Shown piece after piece: positions 6,971 to 63,930 of a stretch of 64,000 nt of DNA. The first letter of the stretch is position 1. Each line of letters begins with the position of its first letter. The stretch is from contig CM041465.1 of NCBI GenBank assembly GCA_023213395.1, positions 154,883,741-154,947,740 on the forward strand, given 5' to 3'. The DNA is from Cycas panzhihuaensis (lineage: Eukaryota; Plantae; Cycadophyta). The notes beneath the pieces are model-generated. The model was given only the letters and a program-made list of their open reading frames with translations, had not been told where the DNA came from and did not search any database. The position numbers and the translations under genes are program-made.

Positions 6971-6981
6971 TGCCCTCCCCC

Positions 6982-7866
6982 CTAAAAATGCTTTGCCCTC
7001 AAAGCATCCTGATTTAATGACCATCTCTTGGTATTATTCTTCAATCGATAGTTCTTATGAATGTTGGTAGAAAAGTTATGCATGGAATAAGGATCTATCC
7101 ATCCCAAGTTGATCTTAATACACCTTGAATATCCTCTTATATACTCTGCATATCTGTAATGTTAACACCATAAGCTTGAATGTTGTTCTTGCCTGGTGTT
7201 TGTAGTAGATGAATGCCTTGCTTGATAAGTTTTCTTGTGCTGGGCCTCTTGATAATGTGGATGTCGATATAGTTCCACTTTAGTTTGCCTTTTAACTATT
7301 TGTAATGCATTTTGTTCCTTATCCTTAGGTGCCACTGATGGTGTGGGGTGGTAAATAACTTTTGTTAAATACTCTTCCATTTGAGGTGATACCTTTTCTT
7401 CCTTGTCCTTGGGTGCAGCCAGTAGTGTAGGATGACAAACAACTTCTATTACCTGCTCTTGACATTCCTCTTCTTTCTCATAATCTTCCTTTTGTTCTTG
7501 ACTTTGTGGAGTTGGGAGAATTCCTTATGCCACACTATGATTATACTTCTCAAGTATTTGTCGTGCTTCTTGTTTATTTTGTTCAAGACTTTGCATCTCT
7601 TTCCACCACGAATCATTATATTTCTTACAAATAGCTAGTTCTAGAAAATAAAATGTATTAAGGAGATGATTTGGGTCATACCAATCTTTAAACAAAAGAT
7701 AAGCCTCTCCTTGTAGATATAATGAGGCTACTATAGTCATCTCCTCATTACGCATGTAGTTTTCATCAAGTGATTTTAAATATACATCCATATCTTTAAC
7801 CCAATCTTTTACAGAAAGAGTCCCATCCGCATTAAAGATGCATGATATGAGCCTTTTTGTAGCCAT
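6982..7866 (-). pseudogene. Gag-derived ORF, copy 1 (294 aa ancestral; 2 premature stops)
   Basis: MATKRLISCIFNADG...DWVKDMDVYL...ASLYLQGEAYLLF (retrotransposon Gag-like); one 885-nt frame ending just inside the PPT. Confidence 0.75.
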
Positions 7867-8576
7867 GATATTGTGGATATAGGAGAGATTAGGGGTGTTT
7901 ATAGCCTGTTATCCCCTAATTTTAATACAAAATTATATATTGGGCCTCACGAGCAATGGTTTTGAGACCATAGTCTTAATGACTAAGAAAATATAGTATG
8001 AAACCCTTAATTTCAAAAACTTTATTTCTAAAAAAATATATAGCTCAAAAATATATAAAATATAGAGTAGAATTATAGCCTCTGAAATATAATTCCAATG
8101 GTATAAACAAAATTGAATTATGATATCTAGATCAAAAGTTATGCCCCTTTTAAGAATTTCATTGTTAGGGTTTTTATAGGCTGAAATAGTACTTGCTGAT
8201 AAAATGTTAATAACTTTTTACTCTAAACTCTGATGAACCACAAACTACTTCCACTAGAAAGTAAATTAAAAAATGCATAGAATTAAAAATAAATTGAGTT
8301 CATTTGGATACTTGTAGCAAATGTTATGGATCTTTGAAGTTGAGGTTACAGATGTGTCCCAGAATTACGGTGATGGAAAAAAAATAGGCCGAAATTAATT
8401 TTGCTACAATTTTCACACTTGCACCCCAAAATCTATAGTGTGACCACTCAAAATTTATAGAACGAGCTATTTCGTCTCAATTTCACCATTTTTTCTTAGA
8501 ATTTTTAATGTTTATTCTCTTGAAGATGCTTTCGAACCTTTGATGACACCTCCAAGATCGTCGCTCTGATACCAAT

Positions 8577-8821
8577 TGTAACGAACCTATTCTTGTTACC
8601 ATTCAACATAGAGAAATAGAAATATAAAATGATAGATAAAAGATAAAGAAGAAGATGAAGTTCTAAAGAACATTCATTAACATAAGATTACAAAATACAT
8701 CATGATGATCTCCTTATACATTATATACATATATATGGGGCAATTATACGCCCATCTCTTAGACTTATGCATGTGGGATAAATGCAATACAAGTAACCTC
8801 ATATGGTGGACGATCATAAGA
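8577..8821 (-). repeat. Shared middle LTR of the tandem element
   Basis: Bounded by a PBS on the left and a PPT on the right. Confidence 0.95.
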
Positions 8822-8832
8822 TACCCTCCCCC

Positions 8833-9717
8833 CTAAAAATGCTTTACCCTCGAAGCATCCTGATTTAATGGCCATCTCTTGCTATTATTCTTCAATCAAT
8901 AGCTCTTACGAATGTTGGTAGAAATGTTGTGCATGGAATAAGGATCTATTTATCCCAAGTTGATCTTGATACACCCTGAATATCCTCTAATATACTCTGC
9001 ATATCTGTAATGTTGACACCATAAGCTTGAATGTTGTTCTTGTTTGGTGTTTGGCATAGATGAATGCCTTGCTTGATAAGTTTTCTTGTGTTGGGCCTCT
9101 TGATAATGTGGATGCCGATATGGTTCCACTTTAGTTTTCCTTTCAACTATTTATGATGCATTTTGTTCCTTATCCTTAGTTGCCACTGATGGTATGGGGT
9201 GGCAAATAACTTTTGTTACATGCTCTTCCATTTGAGGTGATACCTTTTCTTCCTTGTCCTTGGGTGCAACCGGTGGTGCGGGATGACAAATAACTTCTAT
9301 TACCTGCTCTTGACATTCCTCTTCTTTCTCATAATCTTCCTTTTATTCTTAACTTTGTGGAGTTGGGAGAATTTCTTGTCCCATACTATGATTATACTTC
9401 TCAAGTATTTGTCGTGCTTCTTGCTTATTTTGTTCAAGACTTTGCATCTCTTTCCACCACGAATCATTATATTTCTTACGGATAGCTAGTTCTAGAAAAT
9501 AAAATATATTAAGGAGATGATCTGGGTCATACCAATCTTTAAACAATAGATAAGCCTCTCCTTGTAGATATAATAAGGCTACTATAGTCATCTCCTCATT
9601 GCGCATGTAGTTTTTATCAAGTGATTTTAAATATACATCCATATCTTTAACCCAATCTTTTACAGAAAGAGTCCCATCCCCATTAAAGATGCGCGATATG
9701 AGCCTTTTTGTAGCCAT
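8833..9717 (-). pseudogene. Gag-derived ORF, copy 2 (294 aa ancestral; 5 premature stops)
   Basis: Same 885-nt frame as copy 1; the stops fall at different codons. Confidence 0.75.
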
Positions 9718-10427
9718 GATATTGTGGATATAGGAGAGATTATAGGTGTCTATAGCCCATTATTCCCTAATTTTGATACAAAATTATATATTGGGCCTCC
9801 CGAGCAATGGTTTTGAGACCATAATCTTAATGACTAAGAAAATATAGTATGAAATCCTTAATTTCAAAAAAATTATTTCTAAAAAAATATATAGCTCAAA
9901 AATATATAAAATATGGAGTAAAATTATGGCCTCTGAAATACAATTCCAATGGTACAAACAAAATTGAATTCTGATATCTAGATCAAAAGTTATGCCCCTT
10001 TTAAGAATTTCATTATTAGGGTTTTTATAGTCTAAAATAGTACTTGCTGATAAAATGCTAATAACATTTTACTCTAAACTCTGATGTACCTCAAACTACT
10101 TCCACTAGAAAGTAAATTAAAAAATGCATAGAATAAAAAAAAAATTGAGGTCATTTGGATACCTGTAGCAAACGTTATGGATCTTTGAAGTTGAGGTTAT
10201 AGATGTATCCCAGAATTACGGTGATGGAAAAAAAGCAGGCCGAAATTAATTTTGCTGTAATTTTCGCACTTCCACCCCAAAATCTATAATGCAACCACTC
10301 AAAATTTATAGAATGAGCCATCTCATCTCAATTTCACCATTGCTTCTTAGAATTTTCAACATTTATTCTCTTGAAGATGCTTTCAAACCTTTAATGACAC
10401 CTCTAAGATATTCGCTCTGATACCAAT

Positions 10428-10677
10428 TGTAACGAACCTATTCTTGTTACCATTCAACATAGAGAAATAGAAATATAAAATGATAGATAAAAGATAAAGA
10501 AGAAGATGAAGTTCCAAAGAACATTCATTAACATAAGATTACAAAATACATCATGATGATCTCCTTATACATTATATACATATATATGGGGCAATTAAGG
10601 TTGCCCATCTCTTAGACTTATGCATGTGGTATAAATGCAATACCTCATATAACCTCATATGGTGGAGGATCATAACA
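10428..10677 (-). repeat. 5' LTR of the tandem element
   Basis: TGTAACGAACC...CATAACA, adjacent to the PBS. Confidence 0.95.
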
Positions 10678-11210
10678 TCTAATTACTACTATAGCGTCTT
10701 ATGTAGATGATATAATAGTCATTGAAAATGATTATGATATAATTTAACAAGTCACAATTTAGATGGAAAATATGTTTGAAATGATAAAGATGGGATTACT
10801 TTATTACTACCTTGGTATTGAAGCAGATCAAAGAATATTTTGTATTTCTATCCTAAATAAAATATGTAAAAACTCTACTTAAAAAATTCAAAATAAAAGA
10901 TTTCAATGCTAGTATAATCCTAATTGAAATAAGACATATCCTTACTATGGATGAAAGTGAACAAAAAGTTGATGAAATTTTGTACCAATAACTAATAGGT
11001 AGTCTTATTTATCTTATAGCCACCATGTCAGATATTTCATATTTAGCCAAAATAATCTCTAGATATATGTAATCTCTAAAATTTTCTCATTGGAATATTA
11101 TGAAAAGAATTGTGAGGTATATCAAAGGAACTTCAACATTGGGACTTAATTATACAAAGGCATTAAACTTTTAGCTAACAAGTTATAGTAATTTAGACAA
11201 GGTTGGATAT
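10678..11210 (+). pseudogene. Copia RT C-half and start of RNase H (continuation of 5090-6723)
   Basis: SYVDDII catalytic motif, MGLLYYYLGIE, LIGSLIYLIATMSDISY, KRIVRYIKGT, SYSNLD. Confidence 0.9.
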
Positions 11211-39300: not shown

Positions 39301-40977
39301 GTGACTTTGTGCACTAGTTCTGTGACCTCCTCCATTCATCCAATGCCATATTGCTAGAAGAATTAAAGAGAGACAACTTTATAAATGTATTGCACCTCAA
39401 GGTATACACAAAGGTCCTTAAAATAGGGGCAACCACCTGTGAGCTAGCCATAGATAAATGCTTGGAATTAGAATCTATTGAGATCCAAGCTAGTCTCAAG
39501 AAGATCAGAAAGAACTCATAACATCGCGAGGCATTACCTCCCCTATGTGGTAACAAGCGGCAATAACAACAATGATCTAGACCTCCTATCATCTCAACTG
39601 ATAAGACCCTAGATCCTCTAACTTCTATCATGTGCTCATTTGAGTGAATGATTCATGACTTAAAGTTGCAACCCTCTTAAACCCCATAAGGTCCATATCA
39701 ACCATAACTTGGATATAAGTAAGTCCATCAAACTTCCCAAACTCTGTCACCTAAGAATGAGGGAACTTAAGCACCCTAAGTAAAGAGGATAAGGTCCCAC
39801 CCTAAAAAGAAATGGTGTTTAGTCCATGGGGAGTGCATGCACAATGACTTGAGGTGTTAGACATAACACCTTGAATTAGCACCCCACATGACCCTCTTCC
39901 TTAAGGTGCATCTAAACCAAACATAGAGCAACCTGTACACTATGACCCATTCTTCAATCATGATGAGCACGATTAACCTGCTCAATAACAAGGTAGGTGG
40001 ACTAGGAATAGGAGGCTAACTCAAACCCCTCTCATAGACCAATCAAAAGGAAAGGAACCTATAGATAGTTCCTTACCATGAACTCTAATCAACCAACCAA
40101 CCATGTCCTCTCAACCCAAAAATATAGGTAAAAGAATTATCTAGTTGCTCGAGACCACTCAAGTATATCCTATTATGAGGTCTCAAGCTGTTAAGGAGGC
40201 TAGGGAAGCCTCCACCTTATAACAACTCCCCCAAGGGGATTCTCCTCCCACAGAGATCCTTGTCATCCCTAAGACTATTTCAATCTACCCAAGATGCTAA
40301 GAATTTAGTTGTACTCTTCCCCAACCCACCAAGAAAGGGAAATCTTTCTCTATCATTAAGGAGCTCCATGGTATTTTAGTCGAGATGTCCATGATGGATG
40401 TTATGAAGAGTTGCCCTGATCAAAGGGCACTCTTATTAGAAGCATTGGGGTTCAACGAAGCCCCAATCTATTTTGTTGGCACCTCCTTATTACATGGACC
40501 TAACCTTATTATGTTTTACCCACACGACCTCCCTCTAGCTAATGTTAGGTAATTGTATTGGCACTATCCATTTACCATCACTATTGAGACACCCAACTTT
40601 ACCCTAAAGCAAACTGTTATAGACAACATCTCCTTAGTTAATATGATGCCTATTTGCATGCTCAAGAAGCTAGGTATTAAAGCTCTCAAATTGATTCCCT
40701 AAAGGTTCCAGGGATATGATAGGAGCAAAAAAGCTCCCTTACAAATGGTCAAGCTCTCCCTAACCTTAAAAGATAAGATTGTCCAAGCTGACATAGTTAT
40801 TTATCATATTGATGTCAACTACAACCTTTTATTAAGTCAACCATGGCCCAAGTAAATGGGAATCATGTGTTCATCAAGGTATGGTAAACTCAAATTTTCT
40901 TATCAATGACAAATCATAGTTGTTACACGTGAATTACCCCCAAACCACCTCTCTCATCATTCATGTCAAGTAAATTT

Positions 40978-43900
40978 TGTTGAGAATACAAGGTCCCAAA
41001 TCTTTTAACTGCCACCAAGATCTATTGCATTCTTACAACTAGTTACAGAAATTGAAACTTAAAATTATATGGAAGTTCTAAAATCAAAGATTATATAATA
41101 ACATGGAAATGAAAGCTAAACATCACATATGCACCTGATATAATGTGGTAAAACCCTAGCAGTGTGCTAAGGAAATATCCACACAGGAAAGGTATCAATC
41201 TTTATTGTTGTAGAATGGAGAAATAATACATCTAAGTTATAGAGTGCTCTCAGGAACAACAACCAGCCACCACCCTCTTCACAATACATTACATTACATT
41301 ACAACATAATAAGAAAAGCCCTAAAACAGGCTACATGAGAGGAACATCCAAGACCTAAATCTCAGCTGTAGAATCTAGGGTATTTGTATCAAATGACCAT
41401 GATTCTCTTTACATTTTGATAAGGTTTACATGGCTAATTTTTCAGGTCAGGGGCTATTGCCCCTGAACCCTCTCCTAGCGGAGGGCATTCCACACCCCTG
41501 CACCCCCCGGCCAAGGGGGGCTCCTGCATCCCTTGGAACCCCCTCAGAAAGATTAGGGGAGAAACTACGCCAAAAACATGCTAAAATATTAGCCCCATAA
41601 TTGTTGTCACAATATCCAATAATCTCCACCTTGATAATAATTACCCAGTACCTTTCATGGACCCTTCATCATCTTTTCTGCAAGCCAAGAGAAGTCAAAC
41701 ACCATTTGAACTTCTCTAATGGTACTGGTTTTGTGAATATATCAGCACAATTCTAATTTGTGTGAATCTTCTCAAGTGCCACTCCACCTGCTTCCATAAC
41801 CTGTTTAACAAAATGGTACTTAATAGTAATATGCTTTGTTCTACTGTGATAAGCTGGATTCTTGGCTAAGTAAATGGTACTTTGACTATCACAAAATACC
41901 TTTACATTGTCCTGTCTCTTTTCAAGCTCAACCAATAGACCCTGTAACCAAATTACTTCTTTACAAGCATGTGCTGTAGCAACATATTCAGCTTCCATGG
42001 TTGATACTGTAGTTGTGCTCTGTAATTTGGACATCCAACTAACTGGACTATTTGCAAGAGTAAAAACATAACCCGAAGTAGACCTTCTTTTGTCTAAATC
42101 TTTTGCAAAGTTTGAATCAACATATCCATAAACCACGATTACACTGCACTCCAAAGGTGATACAAGAGTCACTGCACCTCTCAAATACCAAGCACCCATT
42201 TCACTACATTCAATGTTCCTTTCCGGATTTGCCATAACCGCTAACTACATCGATCGCATGTGAAATATCAGGTCTTGTACATACCATGGCATACATCAAA
42301 CTTCCTACTGCATTGGCATAAGACACACGAGACATATAAGCCTTTTCTTCTTCACTACTAGGACTCATATTCAAAGAAAGCTTGAAGTGGGAAGCCAATG
42401 GGATACTCACTGGTTTTACATTTGCCATCCTAAACCTGGTTAGCACCTTCTCCATATATTTCTGGTGTGATAACCATAGCTTACCATTTTTCCTATCTCT
42501 GTGTATCTCCATGCCTAAGATTTGTTTTATAGCTCCTAGATCCTTCATATCAAAAGTCCTAGCAAATTGAGCCTTTAGCTTATTGATTTCTTCCATGCTT
42601 TTGCTTGCAACCAGCATGTCATCAGCATATAATACCAAGATAATGAATAAGCCATTGTCCATAAATTTAAAGTAAACACAATGATCATACTCACTTCTTT
42701 TGAAATTTTGGCTCTCCATGAAGACATCAAACTTCTTGTACCACTGTCTGGGTGATTGCTTTAGGCCATACAATGATTTTCGGAGCCTACAAATAAGTCT
42801 TTTCTTGCCATCTTATACAAACCCTTTTAGCTGATCCATATAGATCTCCTCATCTAAATGTCCATGTAGAAAACCTATTTTTACATCTAACTGCTCCAAC
42901 TCCAAATCAAGAGAAGCTATCAATGCTAACAACACTCGAATTGAAACAAGTTTAACAACTGGTGAAAAGATCTCATGAAATTCAATACCTGTTTTCTGTA
43001 CAAAACCTTTAGCCACCAGTTTTGCCCTGTATTTATTAACCTTTCCATCAACATCTATTTTATTTTTGAAAACCCACCTGCAACCAATAGTCTTCTTGCC
43101 ATGTGGAAGTTCTACCAAGTCCCATGAATTATTTTTCTTCAAAGGATCTATCTCTTCCTACATAGCCCTTATCCACTTCTCACCATGGATATCATCTACT
43201 GCTTCCCGATAACATGTGGACTCACCATCAATAGAAACTAAAGTAATAGAAATAGAAGGGTTATACCTGTCAGATGGATGACTGACTCGTGTAGATATTC
43301 TAACTGTTGGTAGAGGAGTGTCCACATATTCCTGTGAATCTGTCGTTGATTCATCTTCAGAAAGATCTTCATGCTCTTCTGATTCCATAGATGGTTGCAT
43401 TTCAAACTTGACTTGTTGATGTTCAACTTACTACTCATGTTTCATTTCAACTTCTCCACTGTCTGATTTTATAAGGGGAGATTCATCAAATATGACATCT
43501 CTGTTAATGGTGATTTTGTGGGCAGTAGGATCCCACAACCTGTATCCCTTCACACCATCCTTATCACCATAACCAATAAAGATATATCTCTTAGATTTTG
43601 GGTCTAACTTTGAATGTTTATTTTTGTTAGTCTAAGTATAAGCATCATAACCAAAAACTTTTAAATTTGAATAATCACACGGATGTCTAGTCCATACCTC
43701 TTCAAGAATCTTGTAATCTATTGCAAGTGATAGTGACCTATTTACCAGATAGCAAGCTGTTGGAACAGCTTCTGCCCATAAGCCCTACTCCACTCCTGCA
43801 TTACTTAGCATGCTTCTTGCTCTTTCCAAGAGTGTCCTATTCATGCAATCAGCAATGCCATTTTTCTGCGGAGTATAGCTAGTGGTCTTATGTCTTTCAA

Positions 43901-46203
43901 TCCCAACTTCTCTGCAATAGTTCTTAAACTCTAAGGAGTTGAACTCACCTCCATTATCAGTTCTTAAACATTTGATTATCTTACCAGTACTGTTCTCAAC
44001 TAAAGCCTTGAACTGCTTAAATACACTAAACACTTCAGATTTCCTTTTCAAAAAATAGACCCATACCTTCTTGGAGTAATCATCTATAAATGTAACAAAA
44101 TACAGTGATCCTCCATAAGATATTTTAGGGGCTAGTCCCTATACATCTGAATGTATGTAATGAAGAATGCCTTTACTAGTGTGACTTTTTACTTTAAACC
44201 TGAGTCTACACTATTTTCCAAAAACACAATGTTTACAAAAAGTCAAGTCTGAAAGTTGCAAGTTAGGAAGCAACTTATGGTTTATCAACACCTTAAGTCC
44301 TGTCTCACTCATGTGCCCAAGTCTCTGATGCCATAGCTGAGCTAACCTTGGAGGCTTTCATAATAACCAAGGAGCCCTTTGACACCTTTAGGACTCCTTC
44401 ATGACCTGTATGCTTAAAACCACCCGAATCTAATTCACCCAAGGAAATCAGATTCCTTTTCAAATTAGGTACATGTCTAACCTTAGTTAATGTTCTGACT
44501 ACCCCATCAAACATCTTAATTCTAATACTACCTATTCCCACTATCTTATAAGAAACTTCATTTACCATAAGCACATCACCACCATCAAGAGGTTGGTATG
44601 ATGAGAACCAACTCTTGTGTGGACACATGTCGTGCAAAGCACCTAAATCTAATAACCAGTCATGGTGATAATGAGAAACATTATAGGTGACCAAGACATC
44701 ATCATCCATACCTTGATTTAACTCCACCTGATTCGCCTCCTTGGTAGGATCTTCCTTTTTTTGGAACTCTTTCCTTTTGTAACAATCATTCTTGAGGTGA
44801 CTGGTCTTATTACAATGCCAACACCTGAGCTTACTCTTTTTGTTCTTTGACTTAGACCTCGATGTATCCCTGGAGTTTTGTCCTCTCTCAAATGTTCTAC
44901 CCCTTATTGTCATGGCTTCTGGTGTGGAGGTTTCAAGACTGGACTTCCTCTGCACTTCTTCCATTAGCAAAGCACTCATAACAGAATCATATTCTAATTC
45001 ATCTGTAGTGCTAAAACTAATTGAGGTGACAATATTATCCTAGGATTCAGGTAATGAGCATAACATGGTAATAACCTTGTCCTCATCCTCAATTTTAACA
45101 TCGATACTAGTCAATTGACAAATAAGAGTATTGAAAATATTTAAATGGTCGCAATTTTATACCTTCTTTCATCCTGTAATGAGTACAGCTTGCCTCTTCG
45201 TAGATTCAATTCACATCGATTTGGTCATATACAGGCCTTCCAACCGGGTCCATAATCCTACTGTTGTCTATTCGCCTGCAATGTTAAACAAAACTTCATC
45301 TACTAAGCACAATCGTATTGTGCTAAGTGCCTTTTTGCCTAAATCATCCCATTCATCACCGTCCATCCCTACAGGTTTCTTCGATTTGCCTACAAGGGCT
45401 TTGTATAAACCCAGCTATACAATAATATCATACGCTTTTAGCTTCCATAACTCGAAGTTGTTCTTGCTATTGAATTTCTCCACCTCAAACTTTGCACCTG
45501 CTAGTTTCTCCATTTGGTGCAGAAAAGCTGACACCAAAACCTTCATAAACTTGCTGCAAGAAAAAGAGTGGCCCTGATACCACTTGTTGAGAATACAAGG
45601 TCCCAAACCTTTTAACCACCACTAAGATCTATTGCATTCTTACAACTAGTTACAGAAATTGAAACTTAAAATTACATGCAAGTTCTAAAATTAGAGATTA
45701 TACAATAACATGGAAATGAAAGCCAAACATCACATATGCACCCAATATAACATGGTAAAACCCTAGCAGTATGCTAGGGAAATATCCACATAGGAAAGGT
45801 ATTGATCTTTATTGCTATAGAATGGAGAAACAGTACATCTCAGTTAGAGAGTGCTCTCAAGAGCAACAACCAGCCACCACCCTCTTCATAGTACATTGCA
45901 TTACATTACAACATAATAAGAAAAGCCCTAAAACAGGCTACATGAGAGGAACATCCAAGACCTAAATCTCAACCGTAGAATCTAGGGTGTTTGTATCGAA
46001 TGACCCTGATTCTCTTTACATTTTGATAAGGTTTACATGGCTAATTTGGAGTCGGGCTATCGCCTCGAACCCCTTCCTAGCAGTTGCCCACGCCTCGCAC
46101 CGCTAAGGGGCTCCCACCCCTCGAACCCCGAGAAAGATTAGGGGAAACCACTTAAAAACATGCCAAAATATTAGCCCCATAATTGCTGTCATAATATCTA
46201 ACA
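40978..46203 (-). mobile_element. Near full-length Tnt1/Tork-like Copia element
   Basis: LTRs 40978-41621 and 45585-46203; PBS TGGTATCAGGGC (45571-45582); PPT CAAGGTGGAGAT (41622-41633); TSD AATTT/ATTTT. Confidence 0.95.
41669..45513 (-). pseudogene. Copia gag-pol polyprotein with stops and frameshifts
   Basis: KFEVEKFNSKNNFELWKLK, CWHCNKTSHLKNDC knuckle, WLLDLGA protease, [10 protein letters not shown] integrase, LEQLDVK/YADDML RT, GYVDSNFAKDLDKRRSTSGY RNase H. Confidence 0.95.
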
Positions 46204-47533
46204 ATTTTTAGGGCAATGGATGAACAAGATGACCCATCTAACCCATCCATTATAGGGTTCTTCGAGGATGAAGCACTCACCCAAGGAGAATGAGTTACTA
46301 CTCCTCCTCATGGCCTAGTATATTTTTCCTCTATCAGTGTTAGGAGCTATGGTTATTTAGTAGTCCTTAGTGATAAGGAATCCAATGATGAATATGAAAA
46401 ACCACCACACTGAATCAATTTCCTTAATATAAAAAGGGAAGGGCCATTGCATACTAATATGCCTCCCCCTTTTAGCCTAAATTCATATGACTAAGGGTCA
46501 ACGTAAACATTAACTCCTCCCCTCCTACCCATGCAAGAGTCCCTTTATTTGAGTTCTTAATTGACCTACCATTTTTCTCGAATGGTGCTTAACCAACATC
46601 TAGATCATGTGGACCTACTTGCCCATGAGGATATGGCAAGGGGGCACCCCATACCTCTCTATCTATGCAACCTTCCAAGGAGAGGTTCCTTAGGGTGGAA
46701 AATGTGGGTCAACTAATCAAGCATCGAATCCATCCCCTATCTTACCCTAGTTGCCATGAATAATCAATTTGCTTAGGTATGTAGGGAAACCACATGTTCT
46801 AGAACAACCCTTAGGGAACTTCATTTCTTCATCATCAACTTATGACAATGATGATGAATCATACTCAATCTTTTCGCATGATAAGTCAATTATTTATGAT
46901 TTTAAACCATCTACCTCCCCACCCCTATAACCTGTAGGGAGGTTGATCATGTGTATGAATTGTAGCTCATCAGAAGAGTCACCATGCTACTTTGATTAGT
47001 GGTGTGATCGCTACAAGTCTAATACCCTCTTACAAGCTTCCCAAGTCCCTCTAAGAAAAATAATCCATGGGATTGGCTGCTTTGAAAATGATGAAGCTCT
47101 ACTCAAGCATTTAGTAGGCTCTTCGCCTAACTTGCCTGGTGGGCATCACAAGCTAGGTTTCTAGAAGTGCCTAGATATTGGCTCTTTGTTGGCTAACCCT
47201 AATGAGATAACCATACCTCCCAAACATTTTATAGACCAAGCCCCTCCCTACTTTGATGAGGGAAACATTCTATATATAGGAGCAACCAAGGATATCATCC
47301 TTGATCCTAAACAAATCATCAAGATTGGGGCCAAATATTTGCCCCAAGAAGTTAAGGAGTACATGGAGTTATTCTATAAGTTTCATGACATCTTTACTTT
47401 AGATTATTTAGATATAAAGGGTGTTGATCCTAAACACAACCTTACTACAATCCTAGGTAGTCATCCAATTAGGAAAAAGTAGCGCTCATTATACCTAAAA
47501 CTCTCTCCCACTATTAAAATGGAAGTGGTAAAG

Positions 47534-52474: not shown

Positions 52475-55400
52475 TGGATGCACATCTACGGAATAGTCAC
52501 TATACTCAATAAGAGTGATAGTAGTCAACAGTTAACATTGAAGGTGTGGGCGAGAACCTATAAGCAAAGAGAGCACTACGCAGGGGGCCCTGTGCGCCGA
52601 AGTGCAAGTTTGGGACCTGCGAATGGAACCCAACTACCTTAAAGTAGCCCTCAATCCATAAGAGAGAGTGCATACAGGGGGTAGCCTGGATGGTCTCGAA
52701 AGGAAGGTCCTCCCACCCTTGGATGGCTAGAAGGGAAGAAGAGGAATCCTGAAGGAGTTTCTTTATGATGAAGAGAAATGAATGTGGAAGAGGTAGGCAA
52801 GGGCCTACGATGTAAGCAGGTCTCCCTTGGTTATTTGGCCTAGGCAAATAGAACCAAGAGAGAGAGAGAGAAGAAAATGGAGTGAAACTACGCTCTCCTT
52901 TTAACAACTCAAAGGAAAAAGAGAAAAGAAGAACAAGTATTATACATGCAAGTAAACAAAGCTAAACGAAATGCATCTAAGGATATGCTTGGATGGATAA
53001 AAAGAGAAAGAGGAATGGGGTTCCTACTATGTCCTCTTCCTACATGGGACAAACATATGACGTATAAATGCAAGTGACCAATATCATTAACCTTTCGCTT
53101 TTACATGATCTATTAAATCTAAGCACATATTTAAAATAAAAGCAAGAAAGGAAAATAGAAGGGTGAAGAGAGAGATGGTGCATACCAGGGAGGTGTAGCA
53201 GTCGACAAGAGACCTCACCTATGCATAACGCATGCCCTCTCGCGTAGTCAATTGATGTGTGATCAAGATTGGTGTGAAGGATGGGGGCTTCCTTACCTTC
53301 CCCTTATGAAAACAAAGCAGAACCAAAAGGAAGCAAATAAAGCGAAGACAAAAGAGAGCAAAGCTTACCTAGATCTGGATGTCTTTTCCCTTCGAGAAAA
53401 AGCCACGTCAACCTACACATACAAGAGCTTATCCCTTCCAAGAAGGGGATGTAAGAAGAGCTATATATAGATATGCAAATATATGTAACACATACATCAA
53501 AACATTATGTTTAAGTTAGAGAAATAACTGCTGCAATTAACTTCAACTCTCCTCAAGCAACTGCACATATTAAGCAAGAAAGAGAGAAGGGAAGCCTCAG
53601 GATGGCTACACCCTCTGCTAAGGTTCTCCACACAGCCCTTTGGTACAAGAAGGTAGGGTCAAATGGCAACTTATGACAACCAACAAACAAGAGGAGATGT
53701 GTAGTAAGGTGTTAGGGAGGTATTAAGGCAACAAAATCGATATGGGTAGTGATCCATCACACAAACCCTTCCTGGGATCTTTAAGGGATACCAAGTAACG
53801 TTGGGGACACTATGGAGGTCCAACAGAGAGGTGTGCAAACCTGAAATCAACGCAACAAGGGCTACACACGCTGATAATCTAGCGCAAGCCTAAGCTTCAC
53901 CTTCTCCTAATTAACTCAAGAGAAGCATGGAAGCAGGAGAAGAAAGGTGGGAAGGGGATTGCCCTTGGGGAGTCAGTCTAAGTGGGATGGATCCTACCTT
54001 ACTCCCTTCACCCAACCTTTATGGATCTTCTCCCGCAACTTTCTTAAGAAAAACTAGTGGAGAAAAGGTGAAGGTATATACAAGGCTAAACTCAAAGGAA
54101 ACTATGTCCACAACAGCCAAACGGGGAGAAAAATAAGAAAATACCCTTGGAAATGAGTCTTATATGGAAATAATATACGATAAACTCTAAAAAGGGATCT
54201 AGGCTACCTGTTGGGATAAGTCTAGGGTAGGTTTGCCCTTGCAACCAACGGAGAAGAAGAGTTCCTGTAGGGCTTGCAGGAGGTTTCCCTAAGGATAGCC
54301 ATAAGAGATGCTTGATGGGGCGAATGTAGAAGAGAACCACACCAAACTTGCTTGAGAGTGCCTGGAGAGGAGCTTCCCACCACGAAAAAGAGCCGTTGCA
54401 GGCAGATCCTGAACTACAGCTACAGGAAATGTAGGCCTGTAGATGCACCTTTGGAAGGAAGAAAGAGCAGCAAACTGCAGCAGAAGAAAGTTAAGTTGGA
54501 GAGCCAAAAAAGATTTAAGAGAGGTAAAATGATGATGGTTTTGGGATTTATACCCATCCCAACCCTAGACAAGTGAATAAGGCATGAATAGGGATGAGCT
54601 AGGCATGAGGCCACGTGGTAATTCCATGGAAAAAGTGAGAATTGCTATTGTAGTTTTTAAAAAATAACTTGCAACAGTCACACCACGGTAAACTTCGTGG
54701 TACCACTAAGTTTATAGTGATGTGGAACCAGAAAGCCAAAATGGCAGTAATCTGAGTTCTGGGAGCCTTAGAAGGTGATGTGGCGGGCCTCGGAGGAGTT
54801 GGCCCCCCTGTCCAGGTGGTTAGGACAGTCCAGAAGACATGTGAATAAGGCCAAAAGTAGTATCAAAGGCTAAAGGTCCCAGAAACGTCATGGTAAGAGC
54901 TTAAAATTAGGGTATGAATGGGTCATATAAATCAAATGAGGCTCAAGGCGATATGGAGGTAACACGGAGGGTCGTAAAGTACTATGGGGATGCCTACCTT
55001 GTGGAAAGGTAGGTCCCACTGGGTCACCATAGGCTCACAATACGATAAGCAACATGATCAAGCCAAATGGATGCACGATAATCATACAAATGAAGCAGTC
55101 TGTCATACAATGAGGCAATATTTCTGTCAACCTTTCCAAAGAAATAGTTAAAAATGAAAAGAAAGAAGTATACCTATGCTTACCTGAGTCAACCTATATG
55201 TATCCATTCCCTTAGTCGAGAAACATCGCCCCATTGGTCGCAGAGCCTCATTTCTTCAAGTATGGTGCGATGACGAATGATGGCAGCAAAACGGTCAGTA
55301 GCATATGTGTATGTACATATATAAATCATGATTGTAACAAGAGTCAAGGGTGCTGGTAAGTGTCGTGGTGAAACGTGTGGATATAAGGACAGGGGTGAGA

Positions 55401-56287
55401 CAACATAGGTATTGGAGTTAATTATCATCACTCCACTCCCACCTTTCCAACCAAGATTATACACCTCATCAACATCAATTTAGACATGTGATGCTCAATA
55501 TGTTAAGGTAAGTTTAACTTTGATTTATGTTAAGTTGAGGTAGTTTCATTTGAGTTAAGTTAACATTATTTTATTATTATTTTGAATTCAGGGGTTGAGG
55601 AGTTTCCTTCCTCCTCCAAATTATAAATATTGAGGGGTGTGCAACCCTGGTGTCTTTAGACACTACCCTCTTTTGGGAAATTTATATTAATCTTCTCACA
55701 ATGGCTTGAATACAATGCTTTCATGTGTTTATGCTATCATGCTACACTGATCTATTGATGATTTATGATTTGTATTAATCTATTGAAGTTTATTCTATGT
55801 TCTGCCTTGTTCTCCTGCAAAATATTTTTCTAACATTTGGTATCAGAGCAAGGTTGAAGTTGATATTTTGCTCATATTCGATTTAGCTTCTCATATATTC
55901 AGTAAAAGACTTGCATATAACTACTGGTTGAGATCCTGGCAAGCACACCTACTCATTAGAGAAAATGATTTGGAGTTTCATCCATCATGCATAAAGTTGT
56001 CTCACTTTGAAGCCAATACTACAAACCTGATTACCAGGTTCTTCATGCTTTGATATTCATATATAAATAAATAAATAAATTTCTTTGATATACTTTGAAA
56101 TTTTTACTTTGTTTCTAGCTCCGTTGTATGGTATATGTTTCCATGATATGTGTTTGAGTTAATGCATCTGTGTACACTCGCATTGCCTCCTTGCACTTGC
56201 ATGCTCGATTTACGTCTATGAGCTCTGCATCAAATCCTTTTCTATAAAGAGGCTGTCCTTTTTTTTCTTTGTTGTTGCCATCACTGT

Positions 56288-56461
56288 GGGAGAATATATT
56301 TCTTGTGCTATAGTATGACGCCTCTTAGCACCATCACCAACAAGGCTAATGCTTATATAGTATTGACCTTGGACCGAAAGTCCCTCACAATTGGATTGTA
56401 CACAAACAGTTTCATTAAGAGGTTCACCAACCCCCTTAGAATCATCATAAAGCAAGCGCCT
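56288..56461 (-). pseudogene. Captured GH38 alpha-mannosidase fragment
   Basis: RRLLYDDSKGVGEPLNETVCVQSNCEGLSVQGQYY...GDGAKRRHTIAQEIYSP matches the plant GH38 motif RRLLxDDxRGVxExLNETVC...GEGAKWRR...GQEIYSP. Confidence 0.9.
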
Positions 56462-56494
56462 ACCCTATCACCTATTTACTACCCTCCATGATTT

Positions 56495-56637
56495 ATCCCT
56501 CTCTACTCTCAGCATGTTCTCCAAATACAAAGCATTCTAATCTTTGTGAATAATTCTGTGGGGTATTCTTCGAAGAATTGTTGGTTGCAACCTTAATGCA
56601 GTAGTTGGCACAAGTTTTGCAATCTGTTGTATTGCCA
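56495..56637 (-). pseudogene. RRN3: Captured RNA polymerase I initiation factor RRN3 fragment
   Basis: AIQQIAKLVPTTALRLQPTILRRIPHRIIHKD*NALYLENMLRVE resembles RRN3 ALxxIxxLVPLAPxRLxPxxxxxMP...YVENMLRLE. Confidence 0.75.
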
Positions 56638-56702
56638 CTTTACCGCCCTGTCGCTTATTTACCGCCCTCCGTTCTTCTCGCCACCCCTCCGTTCTTCCCC
56701 CC

Positions 56703-56964
56703 CTATGGATCAGAGGGGCTTGCCTGAATCAAAAATTCCTTGTGGTAATTATTTAGGTTATCGAATGATTTCATGATATTAACATCATACACAAGAACAC
56801 AGCAATCTACACCGCGATAAAAAGCTACACCAAGGCTATGAAATCTCTCTTAGCCAGTAGTATCCCATATCTGGAGCGTGAACAACCTATCCTCAAACTG
56901 TACTTCTTTAGTTAGGAAATCAACTCCAATAGTCACTTTGTGACTGAATTTCTTATTTCCATAT
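56703..56964 (-). pseudogene. RABG3: Captured intronless Rab7/RabG3 GTPase fragment
   Basis: [83 protein letters not shown]. Confidence 0.97.
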
Positions 56965-57669
56965 CTTTGTTATTATTTAGTGGAGAAGGCATAAGCCAAA
57001 GTTTTAGTCAGTAGGTAGATGGACCTGCATCCCACTAAAAAGGTAACAAACCACCAACAATTGAGCACCATACCGGGACCACAAAGAGGATGACAAGTGT
57101 GTAGTCCACGTGGCCTTTTGCATGCCCATGCCAACTACTTGAACCAGCCAGTCTTGATCGCACCACTGAATTTCTTATTTACATATTTATAACAACGTTG
57201 TGGGAGCCGTTCTTCTCCCCTTTTCATATTCCAGGTAGAGACATTCTTCTTGGTATTTGGGAGACGCTCCTTACATCTGAATGCCACTTACCTATTACCA
57301 GGTAGATGACTGTATATTCTTCATAGCCATTACTGTATATTCTTCACAGGTATTACTTGCTATATATTCTCCTTCACCTCATAGTTAACTGTGACCTGGA
57401 GCTAACTTGTGGCACAATATCCAGCATCCATATCACTTCCTACTTGCATGAACGTAGGTCGGTCACTCCGTCCGGAAAGGAACCTCTATTTTATTAAATA
57501 AAACTAACCTAGACGGACATTGTTCGTATTTTACATAAGTGTGTAGGGTTTAAATAAGCGACTCACATTTTTCTTCTTTGATAAGTGATTAATTCGTGCC
57601 AGCCATTTTTTATTTTATATATATATATTGAGTGATTAATACGTGCTAGTCGTTTTTTAATTTTTTGTC

Positions 57670-57871
<202 letters not shown>

Positions 57872-58196
57872 AGTGCATTGTTTCGTTATTTTCAAGTCTC
57901 GTATTTCTCTATACATTTGCAACAACATTCTTTTTAATCTCTCAATCCTACTATCATTATATAGTCTCATGTCTGCCATTTGCATAATCACGATGACATT
58001 TTTATTTTTCTTCTTCATATATTTTTCATAAACTAAAAAAAAAACAAAGTAAATTATATATTTTTGAGATCCGAACATTTAAAGAGCATTAGCTCCCTTT
58101 GGCAGTTTGCCCCCGGACCTGTGTTCTATCATATAACCAGTCCATTACTAAAAGAGGCTTCATTATTTTAAGTTTATTGTGATTTTTACACTTGAC

Positions 58197-58268
58197 GAGT
58201 GGGTTCACCCTCCTGGCAACGGAGGGGTTTATTTTTTGATAGGTCTTGGGTTCAATCCCTACCCATTC
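58197..58268 (+). other. tRNA-like structure (SINE head or tRNA relic)
   Basis: 72 nt; GAGTGGG/CCCATTC terminal stem, CCCTCC/GGAGGG hairpin, GGGTTCAATCCC B-box/T-arm; no credible anticodon arm. Confidence 0.4.
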
Positions 58269-59716
58269 AACCCTTAGGTTCATATTCTAAGAGGGTTATT
58301 TTAACAATATAACCTTTTACCTTTTAATTTTTAATTTTTTTTTTTTAAACATAAGGTTATTGGCATTTTTTTTTTTTTGCCATAACTCTTCATTGGCTCA
58401 TCGGTTTTAGATGAAACCAACTTCATTAGATCATATTTTCTTTGTAGATCAATTTTGACTGGTCATATGACCAATTTGGTACAAATTTGACCCTGTTTCA
58501 GTCGATTTAAAGTCAATCAACATTTTTTTTTAGGATTTTTTCAATTTTTTACAAAATGATTTTTTGAACTGATTGTATTTTATTACCAAAAAATTATTTT
58601 CTACCTAAATTTATTTTACATTGATCTATATTCAACAAAATTCATTAATCATATTTTATTTTATTTTTTAGAATTTATTTTGACTATAATTTTAATCGTT
58701 GAAATTGACATTTTAGTGGTTTTTAACATTTTTAACATTTTTACATAAAGGTACTAGTTACAGTTTTTACTGTAACTTTTCTGTTTGACATCCAAATTAA
58801 GTTCTATCAATTTCGTTAGGAAGATGACTCATTCCCCTTCGAACTGACATAGTTTTTCATACATTTTAAGATGTTTTTACTTATTTTCAAATCCATTAAA
58901 TTTGGACTACTTAAGAGCATCAATTTGTCATTTTTCACATATTTTCATATAAAATTTTTCAACCAAAAATATATTTAGTATTTTTACAAAATATATTTGA
59001 TCTTTTTCAAACACTTTATAAAATTTTATTAGCAATTTTATGTAAATTTGAGCTCCCTGCTCCTGTTAGGCCTTAAAAGGAGGTCTGTACCTTTGAATCA
59101 TTCAAATCTTGACTTATTGAAATCCATTTTTAAAACGGTTAGTTCCATTGGATTCATATTTTATTAATCTACATATTGGTACAATTTCAAGTTATTCTAA
59201 AATTGTTTAGTATAGTTTTCAAGCTGTCAAATTTGAGCATACAAGTACATCCTAATAGGCTTGCCCTTCAAACTTTTTAAGAAAATTCTATTTTATTGCT
59301 CATTGGTTGTGCATAATATATGTTTAAGGTTTCTACTTAACCTTCATATAAGCTTTTTTAAGTTGTTTAGTAACAAAAATTATTCATAAAGCAACTAAAA
59401 ATATATATATATATATTTTAGTTTCTTCAGCATTATATATTATCATCAAGGCTAAGTATTTATTGCATTAAGAATTTACATCTATTCATTTGTAAAAAAT
59501 CCTCTTATTTTAGATTTATATCATTAAAAGAATATTGGTATATGATTTCAAAGTTACTTCTATATTCATTTTTTCCTTATTAGATTTAATTCATTTATTT
59601 TTAAAAAACATTATATTTCTTTTGAAGAGTATATTTGACATCATATAAGTTTGATCACTTATTGACTTTATTTGATTTGCCAAAAGCATATTTTATATGT
59701 ACTAAAGTTTTATAAC

Positions 59717-60393
59717 ATGGCACAATTACCTATATTTGATGGGCAAAATTTTTCAGAATGGCATAAGGTTATGAAAAACTATTTTATTGCACATGATTTA
59801 TGGAAATATTTACAAGATGACTATGATGTTAGTGTTAAGGAAAATATTAGAAAGGATAATGAATCATTAGGATTATTATTTTACACTATGAATGATGATG
59901 TTTTTTCAACGGTTTCTGAATTAACAACTTCTAAATGAGTTTGATGATATTTTTGATGAGCATGTGAGACAGGTGACAGAACATGTGAAGCATAACGACA
60001 ACACCCATGAGGATTCATATCAAATGCAGGACCAACTCCATTTGAGGGGGAGAATGAATCATATGATATGATGAAGAATGAATCTGATGATATAGCAAAG
60101 AATGAACCTGATGATATGACAGTTGTTCAAAGCATAAAGATTACAAAAGATAAAGTTCAAATTCAAATTTTTCTCAATGTTCCAGTTGACAAAGATAAAA
60201 TTACATCTATACATACATACTTGAATTAAGCATCATCTACTTACAGTTTCTTTACATCATTCCTTAGTAAAGAGATATATTTTATAAGAAGGTTGAAATA
60301 TGTTGATAAAGATCAAGACCAGAATTTTAAAGTTTTTTTTAAGTACAAGTTCCATAAGTTCAAGGAAAAGATACAAGTGTTCGTGATGACATT
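59717..60393 (+). pseudogene. Copia gag N-terminus fused to non-pol sequence and an RNase H-like tail
   Basis: MAQLPIFDGQNFSEWHKVMKNYFIAHDLWKYL (DUF4219/UBN2-type gag); three 24-bp repeats (ENESYDMM/KNESDDIA/KNEPDDMT); ends KFHKFKEKIQV just before the PPT. Confidence 0.75.
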
Positions 60394-61083
60394 AAGAGGG
60401 AGAATGTTGGAGTTAATCATGATCACTTCACTCCCACATTTCTAACCAGGATTGTACACCTCATCAACATCAATTTAGACATGTAATGCTCAACATGTCA
60501 AGGTGAGCTAAGATAAGTTTAACTTTGATTTATGTTAAGTTAAGTTAGTTTCATTTGAGTTAAGTGAACATTATTTTATTATTATTTTAAATTCAAGGGT
60601 TGAGGAGTTTCCCTCATCCCCCAAATTATAAATATTGAGAGGTGTGCAGTCCTGGTGTCTTTAGACACCGCCCTCTTTTGGGAAATTTGTATTAATCTTC
60701 TGACAATGGCTTGAATATAATGCTTTCATGTGTTTATGCTATCATGCTACATTGATCTATTGATGATTTATGATTTGTATTGATCTATTAAAGTTTATTC
60801 TATGTTCTGCCCTATTCTCCTACAAAATATTTTTCCAACAATAGGGGTTGCCTATGTACCACCCGAGAATTGACGGGAAGCTAAGTAGAATGAGGGGGCT
60901 GCCCCCATTGTGAAAATGCAAAGAGAAGTACATGATGATGTCAGGTATAAGTGGTAAATGAGAAAACCTAGTAGTCACCATAGTTTAACCTCATCAGTGG
61001 CTAGCTTTCGAAGGTGCAAACAGATTCACAAAGTGATCTGCGTGACGGCCTGAGACTTGGGTGACAGAGCGACTAGGTAAGTC

Positions 61084-61506
61084 TCAAAGGCGGCCAACAA
61101 GAAGAGGAAGGTGACGCTCAAGGATGAGGCAAACGAGGCTGTCTGCCTCAGTGTTAAGGGCCTGAGGGATATGTTAGATGTCGACATATTAGAAATTAGC
61201 TAGCAGGGATATAGTGGTTAAAGCAAGGGCTTTTAAGTGAGGGCATCGCACCTGGTAAACCTGGGTGAGATGGGACACCACCACTTGGAAGTCACAAAGA
61301 AGAATAATAGATCCACGATAGAAATAGAGTGCATCAGTAAGGGCTTTGATAACGACCATGTACTCAGCTTTGTTATTGGTGGCCTTAGGGAGGAAGACTC
61401 TGGAACGCAGAAAATCATATCCAAAAGGGTCGCAAAGAATCCATGTAGTGACAGAAGGTCCAGGATTACCACGGCTTCCGCCGTCGGTAAAGATGAAGAG
61501 AGTCAT
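61084..61506 (-). pseudogene. Stand-alone archaeal-type RNase HI (aRH) of element D
   Basis: MTLFIFTDGGSRGNPGP...ATNNKAEY...CDFQVVV...HIPQALNTEADSL; all four acidic catalytic positions are present; 2 stops. Confidence 0.9.
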
Positions 61507-62044
61507 GGGTGAGTAAAGAAAGTGTCTCGATAAAGAAAATGTATAATAATATAGGAATCGAGATAAAAGAGGCTCATATGGTAAGCAATAAATGGCCGTG
61601 AAGGGTAGGAGGACCTAGCAATGAGGCTACCTAAGGACAGGAGCAAGCTATCTGACCACTGACTGAGAGACGGCGACAAAAGAGCACCTTGGGATGCCAA
61701 AGGTTGCTTAAGAAAGCAAGGAATGACTCTGAACAAAGGGAGCATTCCCTTTGGAAACCCCAGGGGCTGGAACAGGCTACAAAAATGAGTCCAAGATGGT
61801 GAAACGAGCCAAACGAGTATAAACTCGGGTATGCATAGGAGCGGTACGTAAAATGAGACATAAGGGCCCTGCGAAAATGCATCGATGAAGTGCCATAAAT
61901 GCATCTGAAGGAATGAGCTAAAACAAAGGCTGTGGGAGCACAATGGAAAACAGGGCTAGAAGGAAGTGATGATTGGAGATGAGAAATGATCCAAAGGGCT
62001 TTCACAAGAGCGAAAACGAAGATAGTGCCCGTCAAGGCCCCTGC

Positions 62045-62053
62045 CTATATAAG
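62045..62053 (+). promoter_or_regulatory. Putative TATA box of the PMD gene
   Basis: CCTATATAA about 165 bp upstream of ATG 62213; element A has CCTATATATAAAAGG (minus, ~29894-29908) at the equivalent distance. Confidence 0.55.
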
Positions 62054-62212
62054 GAAAATCGATGAAAATGAAATTCATTTTCACGGGCTCTCAAACGAAT
62101 CCAGAGCCCTTTCCTTATGCAGCGGAGCACCACTTGACTTCAAGGACACGTTGGGAAAGACCTAACTGTTTGATCGAGGCCAGGAGACAATCGTTGGGAC
62201 CACAGATAGAAG

Positions 62213-63930
62213 ATGGCAACTGCACGACCAAATCCAGTGAGTAGATCTTCGAAACCATGTCCCATCTTACAATTTGAAGTTTTAATGCTTTTTATTATTT
62301 TTATATATAGTTTTTGGCCCCACATAGGAAAAAAAGATCTCCAGGAGTCCAGATTGGACCCAGAGAGAGGTGTGATTGGGGCATTAGGTAGCCCTGGTCC
62401 CATTGGGCCTGGGTGTGGCCCACGAGAAAAAAATTTTAGTTTTTTTGGGTAGAAAACCCCTCCTTTTGGGGGGGTGACAATCGCACCACGACAAAGATCG
62501 TGGTGCCGCGATCTTTACCGTGGGGCCCCGATCACCACGGGACTCGGGCCAAACTCTGCGGTACCATGAAGTTTGGTGTGGTGCAAAGGCAGACTAGCTG
62601 AAAAAAGAGGATGGGGACCCAGGGGTCCCCGAAACCGGACCGACTAGGGCTGAGAGACAGTTGAGAGGATGAGGGATGAGGATATGTCAGAGTTGTGACT
62701 TGTTGCATGGCATTTTGCAGGTTATCGTTGCAGTGGAGAACTGCGAGAACATTGGTATGGCTATGCTTAGTTTCTTAGAGATGATGTCAAGGGAGGACAG
62801 GCAGGTACAACTGAGATGTGGCCTATTGAAGGTCATGAGGACACCCTAATATACATCAGACCAGAGATTATTGGTAGACATAGTATCCCACTGGGACATG
62901 CAGAGACATGTCTTTCACTTACCCCAAGTGGGAGACGTATCAGTGACTCTAAGAGATGTTAGGAGGATACGGGGGGTATCAGCGATAGGGAGGCCGGTGA
63001 TATTAGAAGCATTGCCCAGCAATGAGATAACACATAAGGAGGCTGCCGCATTCTTCACAGGCTTGGACAGGTGGGAAAGGCAAGGGATTCCTCTTTAGAG
63101 AATGGTTATGTCTGGGATTTCTCGTGTAAGGAAGCTAATCACGTTGTGCATTATGTTCTAGATATCCCAGAAACAGAACTATAGGGACATACCGGGAGGA
63201 TGGATAGATGCGGTACATCGGTGTGAGGTAGGGGAGAGGATGGACTGGGCTACCCTCATAGCAGTGAACCTCGTCACACAGCTGGATGCCATTCGGGCAG
63301 CAGGGAGAGGTGGACTGTCATACAATATGTTACTACAGTGCTGGTTCTTCAACCACTTTGGAGCAGTGGCGCCGATGGGATCACACTGCTTTGAGTGGGC
63401 CCTGATGGTACACAGGTGGCAGACTAAGTTTAGAGGGACCGAGGACCAGGCTCATGCCCGTCGCTCAGTGGAGGCCACATCACTAGACCTCCTTACTATG
63501 ACAGATTACATAGCAGATCTGTATCGAGTGGCGAGGTGGGATAGTGACGACGAGGCAAGTAGGGTAGGAGTGCCCCCAGGAGATGATGAGGGCGGCAATG
63601 AAGGTGATGGGGCTGGCCCATCATGAGCTGCAGGAGAGGTAGGTTCATCAGGGATCACGGCTAAAGAGGCAGGACCATTCGGGACTGCAGGTGGAGAGGT
63701 AGACTCGTCTGGAGCTGCAGAGGAGAGCAGGGACCCAGTGACACGGGCCTGTAGGCTGCAGATCATCAGGAGGTCTGGAGAGGTAGCTACACCATTTGCG
63801 GAGAGGAGGGATGCCATAGTTGCTAAGGCAGTGGTAGAGGAGGTACCTGAGGAGGAGGAGGTACCTACAACTGGTGGAGTACCTGAGGCAGAGGTAGTCA
63901 CTCGAGTCGAGGAGCTGGCAGCCACACCAG
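62213..63930 (+). pseudogene. Intron-containing Plant Mobile Domain gene of element D (antisense to the element), continuing past the window
   Basis: Exon 1 MATARPNP|GTGAGT; intron 62237-62720 ending TTTTGCAG; exon 2 includes IVSHWDMQRHVFHLPQVGDVSVTLRDVRRIRGVSAIGRPV (PMD WxxxxHxFHLPxGxxxITLxDV motif), DWATLIA, LLQCWFFNHF; next donor CAG|GTGAGA at 63931. Confidence 0.88.

Follow-up and report, generated by a model that had tools for sequence, protein, structure and literature searches.

How does host-gene sequence that has already lost its introns come to lie antisense to the retrotransposon that carries it? The question is raised by a locus on contig CM041465.1 of Cycas panzhihuaensis, analysed here within a window of 64,000 nt (positions 154,883,741 to 154,947,740 of the contig; all coordinates below are those of the window). 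An initial annotation, made from the letters alone, had described a spliced RabG3 fragment lying antisense to its element and had seen in this an orientation paradox. In the published model, the template switch takes place while the element RNA is being copied (Tan et al., 2016; PMC5131818), and we infer that such a minus-strand switch would put the cargo in sense. Antisense cargo therefore needs another route: the end of a plus-strand DNA could have been primed on mRNA, an antisense RNA could have been involved, or the cargo could have been inverted later.

The cargo-bearing element spans 5,431 nt (55410–60840, ca. 5.4 kb) and has the two LTRs and the 5-nt target-site duplication of an LTR retrotransposon, its 5′ LTR beginning with TA, not TG:

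55405–55409, no strand: left target-site duplication ATAGG, identical to the five bases at 60841–60845
55410–55835, plus strand: 5′ LTR of 426 nt, starting with TA and ending with CA
55838–55855, plus strand: primer binding site (PBS) from a motif scan, 2 nt inside the end of the 5′ LTR and presumably of the initiator-Met tRNA type
59717–59941, plus strand: degenerate Copia-type gag N-terminus (DUF4219, Retrotran_gag_2)
60394–60404, plus strand: polypurine tract (PPT) from a motif scan, adjoining the 3′ LTR
60405–60840, plus strand: 3′ LTR of 436 nt, TG...CA
60841–60845, no strand: right target-site duplication ATAGG, from comparison of the flanks

The two LTRs are identical at 392 of 426 aligned bases, with 28 transitions and 6 transversions (K2P 0.086). 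The PBS at 55838, which we assign to the initiator-Met tRNA by assumption, and the PPT at 60394 share the plus strand, and the motif scan found no minus-strand PBS or PPT within the element. The gag remnant is broken, with about 75 codons, and its matches to DUF4219 (E 2.2e-5) and Retrotran_gag_2 (E 5.6e-4) both fall under the curated cut-offs; there was no Pfam match to pol in the scanned intervals 55851–57500 and 57870–60404, and no Rfam match across 55400–60900. Contigs about 87–93% alike bridge the cargo junctions, so that the element is multi-copy. Judged from its sequence, it is best classed as a decayed, non-autonomous, multi-copy Copia-type LTR retrotransposon, the Copia assignment deriving from the sub-cut-off gag matches, with pol absent; the present copy is decayed and gives no sign of function. 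TR-GAG elements are under about 4 kb and contain a gag ORF only, and at 5,431 nt, with a broken gag, this element falls outside their definition.

Several further features were observed within the element. A second PPT-like tract (60043–60053), 350 nt ahead of the true PPT, suggests a duplicated or chimeric 3′ end. There is a (TA)n run of about 200 nt (57673–57869), together with short tandem duplications at 57309–57357 and 57584–57659, with spacings of 23 and 47 nt, and a canonical donor-like AG|GTAAGT on the minus strand near 57292. Sequence searches gave no identity for 57187–57500; two matches for this interval and the cargo 5 region were inflated by repeats and were rejected. A contig from DNA run X2 (depth 3.5, 27-nt side) skips the 79 nt of 56214–56292, which have GT..AG ends on the plus strand; this may be a cryptic intron removed when the RNA of the element was spliced, in which case plus would be confirmed as the copied strand.

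Other elements occur in the window. A tandem array at 6724–10678 comprises three LTR-like repeats and two internal units (period about 1,851 nt), with PBS motifs on the minus strand and, on the same strand, a degenerate gag-like reading seen by eye and without Pfam match. A Copia element on the minus strand (40977–46205) has LTRs of 620–650 nt (87% alike) and gag-pol fragments. The interval 61189–63626, with RNase H on the minus strand and a plant mobile domain on the plus strand, probably represents a Gypsy element that has an accessory ORF in antisense; it, or an adjacent element, may enclose the cargo-bearing one.

Twelve of the 24 sequencing runs listed share a small part of the window (at most 0.16), and none of these is listed as RNA. 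Four of the 24 were compared with it: the DNA runs X1, X2 and X4, of each of which about half was read and whose depth is not copy number, and X21, a presumed RNA run, its RNA status being guessed, which may be from another species. A metagenome search for family copies gave no match to a 24-mer. The cargo region contains the following:

56197–56256, minus strand: cargo 1, mRNA fragment for mitochondrial ribosomal protein uS5m (At1g64880-like; 6xyw_Bd, E 7.4e-4), with 3 differences in 60 nt from X21 record 17
56289–56461, minus strand: cargo 2, alpha-mannosidase (GH38) mRNA fragment (6b9o_A, E 7.7e-14), gap-free against X21 record 18 with 11 differences in 173 nt
56463–56489, no strand: linker A, the left-hand of two 27-nt direct repeats on either side of the RRN3 piece
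56499–56637, minus strand: cargo 3, RRN3 mRNA fragment (Pfam RRN3, E 4.6e-5), with 6 differences in 139 nt from X21 record 19
56639–56705, minus strand: linker B, a G-rich minus-strand tract, predicted to be G-quadruplex-like, with the right copy of the 27-nt repeat at 56646–56672
56706–56964, minus strand: cargo 4, intronless RabG3 mRNA fragment (Pfam Ras, E 4.9e-20), with 18 differences from X21 record 20, whose match spans 56706–56964 across both junctions
56958–57035, no strand: cargo 5, transcript fragment (X21 record 21, 7 differences in 78 nt)
57029–57166, no strand: one monomer of a very abundant tandem repeat with a unit of about 153 nt
57165–57186, minus strand: a repeat of the initial 22 nt of the RabG3 piece (21 of 22 identical)

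The four identified host-gene pieces thus lie within 800 nt of the 5′ internal region, upstream of gag, and all four are on the minus strand; with PBS, PPT and gag on the plus strand, the cargo is antisense to the element, as had been claimed. Records 17–20 of X21 match each identified piece at the expected mRNA position and without an intron-sized gap, and the X21 contigs run on with unlike letters beyond the ends of the pieces. Where these loose ends are shown, the cargo ends inside coding sequence, without a poly(A) of its own. The best relatives of the RRN3 piece, among 3 matches in 16 candidates, are proteins of Taxus and Ginkgo (87%), which points to a gymnosperm as the likely host. Cargo 5, for which the searches found no protein relative, shares 7 nt with RabG3 at one end and 7 nt with the repeat monomer at the other. 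The monomer has a summed depth of up to 27,757, with joints from 57166 to 57029 with 15 letters between in X1, X2 and X4; abundant in these three DNA runs, it is partly matched by a contig of the presumed RNA run. A T-rich plus-strand tract at 56258–56270, some 20 nt ahead of the mannosidase piece and differing in length from copy to copy, may represent either a poly(A) that was copied or a site of priming.

The minus strand of 56706–56964 reads as RabG3/Rab7 without interruption through LFTLQ-IWD and FLIQ-ASP; it begins at an exon start, passes the sites of two lost introns and ends in the exon that follows, with one stop and a 6-nt deletion. The initial annotation had stated that plant RabG3 genes have introns at both points, and a comparison with 65 related loci, counting only those where both flanking motifs were found, agrees with it: a GT..AG intron occurs at LQ|IW in 38 of 41 loci (17 of 20 distinct 60-mers) and at IQ|AS in 40 of 44 (18 of 22), these being redundant plant loci, not the parent gene of this genome. 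An AG acceptor stands one base before the YVN codons in 52 of 60 loci (24 of 29 distinct 60-mers). The contiguous exceptions at the first two junctions, L001–L003 and L049, look like transcript contigs, and five further loci lack the upstream intron alone. Additionally, the match to two X4 DNA contigs (records 29 and 30; 81% and 94.5% alike) ends at 56873, at the CAG before IWD, beyond which they continue with 49 and 247 unlike letters that, from their place, would be intron; X4 record 28 crosses the CAG-IWD junction, as a family copy would. The introns of the relatives, the DNA contigs that stop at CAG and the gap-free X21 record 20 indicate that the RabG3 piece derives from spliced RNA, the source that had been proposed.

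Plant RabG3 contig L003 (948–1211) keeps the upstream intron and lacks the next two, as a partly spliced form would; its spliced part begins at the same exon as the cargo, and L004–L006, L012 and L034 have the reverse pattern. Retention of RabG3 intron 2 upstream of the piece was rejected, given T fractions of 0.175 and 0.30, where 23 plant intron ends all had 0.35 or more. For two other pieces the initial annotation gave intron positions that we take as assumed, GLS|VQG in the mannosidase and KD| in RRN3. No mannosidase relative for intron comparison was found among 361 candidates in genome contigs or 17 in viral contigs; X1 record 4 extends 19 nt beyond the GLS|VQG point, but this contig may represent a copy of the family.

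It had further been claimed that the RabG3 piece starts at AG|ATAT. The start at an exon boundary stands; the AG is likely not a splice acceptor. It sits inside the match to cargo 5 (X21 record 21, 56958–57035), and the second copy of the exon start (57165–57186) is preceded by AA, so that the AG is likely a microhomology junction instead. The AG at RRN3 (56638) is not common to other copies and, with the AA at the second RabG3 copy, led us to reject as a rule that all 5′ ends of cargo are splice junctions. Nevertheless, both RabG3 copies end at the exon start, which would happen by chance in about 3% of cases (on an assumed gene model). This coincidence keeps alive an explanation by antisense RNA, in one of two forms. 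An antisense transcript of the element would have been spliced, either into host exons or across cargo that still had its introns, and would then have returned to the element by recombination; alternatively, minus-strand synthesis would have switched to a complement of the mRNA made by RDR. A splice junction would place the start of the RabG3 piece at an exon boundary in both copies, and the mannosidase piece also, presumably, starts near one. The donors are four housekeeping-type genes, not typical RDR substrates, and nothing was found in support of the RDR-made template suggested earlier. Plant LTR elements can hold antisense ORFs (PMC11963269); however, the AG before RabG3 belongs to another RNA, with AA at the other copy, the RRN3 AG is unshared and the 3′ ends of the cargo fall mid-exon, which together make an origin from antisense RNA improbable.

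The repeats around the inserts bear on how the pieces were joined. The 22-nt copies (56943–56964 and 57165–57186) flank a 200-nt insert whose joints have overlaps of 7, 7 and 1–2 nt. The 7-nt overlaps, between RabG3 and cargo 5 and between cargo 5 and the repeat monomer, come close to the 6 bp given as the median microsimilarity for LTR-mediated retrocopies (PMC5131818); the other cargo junctions are without known partner sequence. The 27-nt repeat flanks RRN3 with offsets of 8–9 nt and scores 18, as against a maximum of 15 in 25 shuffles; shorter similarities between linkers (scores 13–13.5) were within the shuffle range and were discarded. Both repeats flank inserts without a tail, the hallmarks of LINE-type insertion being absent, and they fit an enzyme that leaves its template and then returns.

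Such short flanking duplications would also fit the patching of a break in a DNA copy of the element, whether chromosomal or extrachromosomal, with reverse-transcribed pieces of mRNA, oriented by chance, in a copy that later spread. At breaks in mouse, Ono et al. (2015; PMC4516963) found pieces of spliced mRNA, one of them reversed, and chains of several pieces joined by 1–5 nt of microhomology; a single chain would amount to one coin flip for orientation, and the lack of orientation bias in maize Sirevirus captures (10.1101/777037) fits an unpolarised route. However, that work concerned induced breaks in mouse zygotes, not plants (PMC4516963), and five or six foreign RNAs within 1 kb, in one lineage and a short time, would require RNA and reverse transcriptase to be locally plentiful, as they would be in a particle. 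Break repair would give the same product, and we regard it as a candidate, albeit an unlikely one.

Divergence was used to place the capture in time. Between the five pieces and the transcript contigs there are 45 differences in 709 positions (6.3%), distributed homogeneously among the pieces (p 0.70). The window differs from family copies at 191 of 1783 positions, half of which is 5.4%, as measured on twelve hand-picked contigs of the 24 DNA records listed, aligned full-length in the cargo region; half the LTR distance is 4.0%. Since the transcript divergence is close to half the copy-to-copy and half the LTR distance, the capture would have occurred shortly before the family amplified, and an origin of X21 in a related species would only shorten this interval.

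These matched divergences disfavour the uptake of pre-existing LINE-made retrocopies from the genome, another of the routes offered in the initial annotation, as they leave little time for an existence as separate retrocopies. LINE retrocopies are intronless and occur in either orientation, and an A-rich tract is present on the minus strand at 56259–56270; even so, all pieces end in coding sequence without a poly(A) of their own, and four unrelated retrocopies side by side would be unlikely, so that we give this route very little credence.

X1 and X2 contigs (records 6, 7, 13 and 14) bridge RRN3, linker and RabG3, so that these junctions are common to other copies. None of the contigs listed spans the whole cargo stretch, and in other copies the link between block and PBS consists of overlapping short pieces. 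X1 record 5 and X4 record 27 leave the window after RRN3 or lack RRN3, and one X2 contig joins 56487 to 56639 without RRN3, at a depth of 3.6 and on the 22-nt side, too weak for an empty-site call; contigs of this kind would be expected as much from stepwise gain as from later deletion. The number of separate capture events may be as low as one or as high as about five. Depth declines from thousands on the PBS side to tens at RabG3; this slope was not read as a record of the order of events, because internal deletions would produce the same pattern.

The uniform divergence fits one block, and this would also be expected if the pieces had been captured in sense by minus-strand switching, in a forerunner or in another element, and the block had then been inverted or moved in backwards once. 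A single event of this kind would account for all four orientations with known steps only, and multi-gene sense chimeras have been described (PMC5131818). However, there is no minus-strand Pfam match to gag or pol in 55851–57500 or 57870–60404 and no minus-strand PBS, the longest inverted repeat bounding the block is a 14-nt TA run, and capture, inversion and amplification would all be squeezed into the short interval above. An inverted block is thus doubtful.

The reading that we favour, with a probability of roughly 0.45, is that the plus strand of the element DNA hopped onto co-packaged host mRNAs, yielding antisense, spliced cargo; in its support, PBS, PPT and gag remnant are on the plus strand and the four identified pieces on the minus strand. 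The reverse transcriptase of a helper element would make the plus strand on minus-strand DNA and then leave this template. It would copy stretches of mRNA, whose complement would enter the plus strand, hop from RNA to RNA by short overlaps, and return to the element template. The extra loop would be fixed after integration and then amplified via the intact LTRs, PBS and PPT. A switch within the particle is favoured because the particle supplies both the enzyme and the RNAs; it would give an insertion with a short duplication, and RNA-to-RNA hopping would preserve one polarity. The same polarity would be expected if a chromosomal plus-strand end were primed on mRNA. In the literature searched, chiefly open-access, we found no experimental demonstration that cellular mRNA is captured during plus-strand synthesis; switches of the plus strand onto RNA may have been treated in older studies of retroviruses and Ty1.

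More speculatively, the G-rich minus-strand tract at 56639–56705 could have stalled plus-strand synthesis and so set both place and polarity. Linker B has the highest G4Hunter-type score of the 64-kb window (2.08), reached by 2 of 500 block shuffles of the element, and its G-rich strand is minus, the template of plus-strand synthesis; G-quadruplex-like tracts have been proposed as reverse transcription checkpoints (PMC3902901). The scan was run after the linker had been seen, the score depends heavily on a single stretch of seven G, and linker B may be a piece of cargo in its own right. The RRN3 piece lies on the side that a stall predicts, as does the mannosidase piece beside the weaker linker A; RabG3 lies on the opposite side. 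Because it was found after the fact and RabG3 is on the side not predicted, the tract is only a lead. A second and polarised route of capture in plant LTR retrotransposons, in which a minus-strand G-rich stall leads to a hop onto mRNA and to a pile-up of antisense spliced cargo, is rather improbable; if it exists, the family's own RNA would be antisense to several host genes, and the route would explain much of the half of LTR cargo that lies in antisense.

The paradox is smaller than had been claimed, although the need for another route stands and a plus-strand switch fits it best. Maize Sirevirus elements, of Copia type, carry captured cargo without orientation bias (10.1101/777037), each gymnosperm genome contains about 400,000 fragments captured by transposable elements (Bao et al., 2026; PMC13477047), and the four pieces may be one event. 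If independent, four antisense pieces out of four have a p of 0.0625 (0.125 for either direction); if they represent one event, the count has no weight. A tabulation of orientation across the family, suggested earlier as a test, would add nothing, because other copies share the junctions and would not be independent.

LTR elements commonly capture pieces of host genes, on an enormous scale in gymnosperms, and the mechanism generally accepted for this leaves the cargo in sense. Pieces that have lost their introns and also lie in antisense single out cases beyond the standard model, and the datable junctions of this family allow the alternatives to be tested. If the route is real, elements would make transcripts antisense to housekeeping mRNAs, which bears on the conflict over silencing that sets carrier elements against donor genes. 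Multi-gene intronless cargo in LTR elements is already known, and so is antisense cargo; what may be new is their combination, in the RabG3 piece, with three more identified pieces in the same orientation. In the literature searched, mostly non-subscription and without bioRxiv supplements, we found no treatment of spliced antisense cargo in a plant LTR element, and orientation or antisense is not mentioned in the available text of PMC13317346, PMC3726574 and PMC2774510.

Among known systems, maize Bs1 is likewise a plant LTR element with fragments of several unlinked genes, three of them captured (PMC13317346, PMC5131818), but its pieces form a translated chimeric gene (PMC13317346), whereas those described here are antisense and decayed. 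Maize Sirevirus capture (Muyle et al.; 10.1101/777037) shares the Copia type and the host exon pieces, and antisense cargo is common in it; its text, as available, does not address cargo splicing, with no mention of intron, spliced or mRNA, and offers no capture mechanism. Exon capture in gymnosperms (PMC13477047) involves the same kind of host and Copia examples, with two or more captures in 13.68% of carriers, but its main text makes no mention of antisense or orientation in the parts available. Break repair (Ono et al., 2015; PMC4516963) resembles this locus in its spliced mRNA pieces, possible reversal, microhomology chains and lack of poly(A), and differs in concerning induced breaks at single loci of mouse, in contrast to an amplified family. 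The Retand/Tat elements (PMC11963269) also have extra sequence antisense to gag-pol in plant LTR elements; theirs consists of conserved ORFs that Gypsy elements carry downstream of pol and ahead of the 3′ LTR, whereas here short, decayed pieces of host mRNA lie upstream of gag in a Copia-type element. Closest are the LTR-mediated retrocopies (Tan et al., 2016; PMC5131818), which have in common with the present element partial, intronless host pieces (here the RabG3 piece), short overlaps (here at some of the junctions), several parent genes per element, further non-autonomous copying and, at the cargo, neither poly(A) nor LINE-type duplication. Their model implies sense cargo, whereas all four identified pieces are antisense here; the available text of PMC5131818 gives the transcription strand, not orientation relative to the element, and its Orientation column is filled for non-LTR cases too. 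The element thus works like an LTR-mediated retrocopy, yet stands outside the model of Tan et al. (2016).
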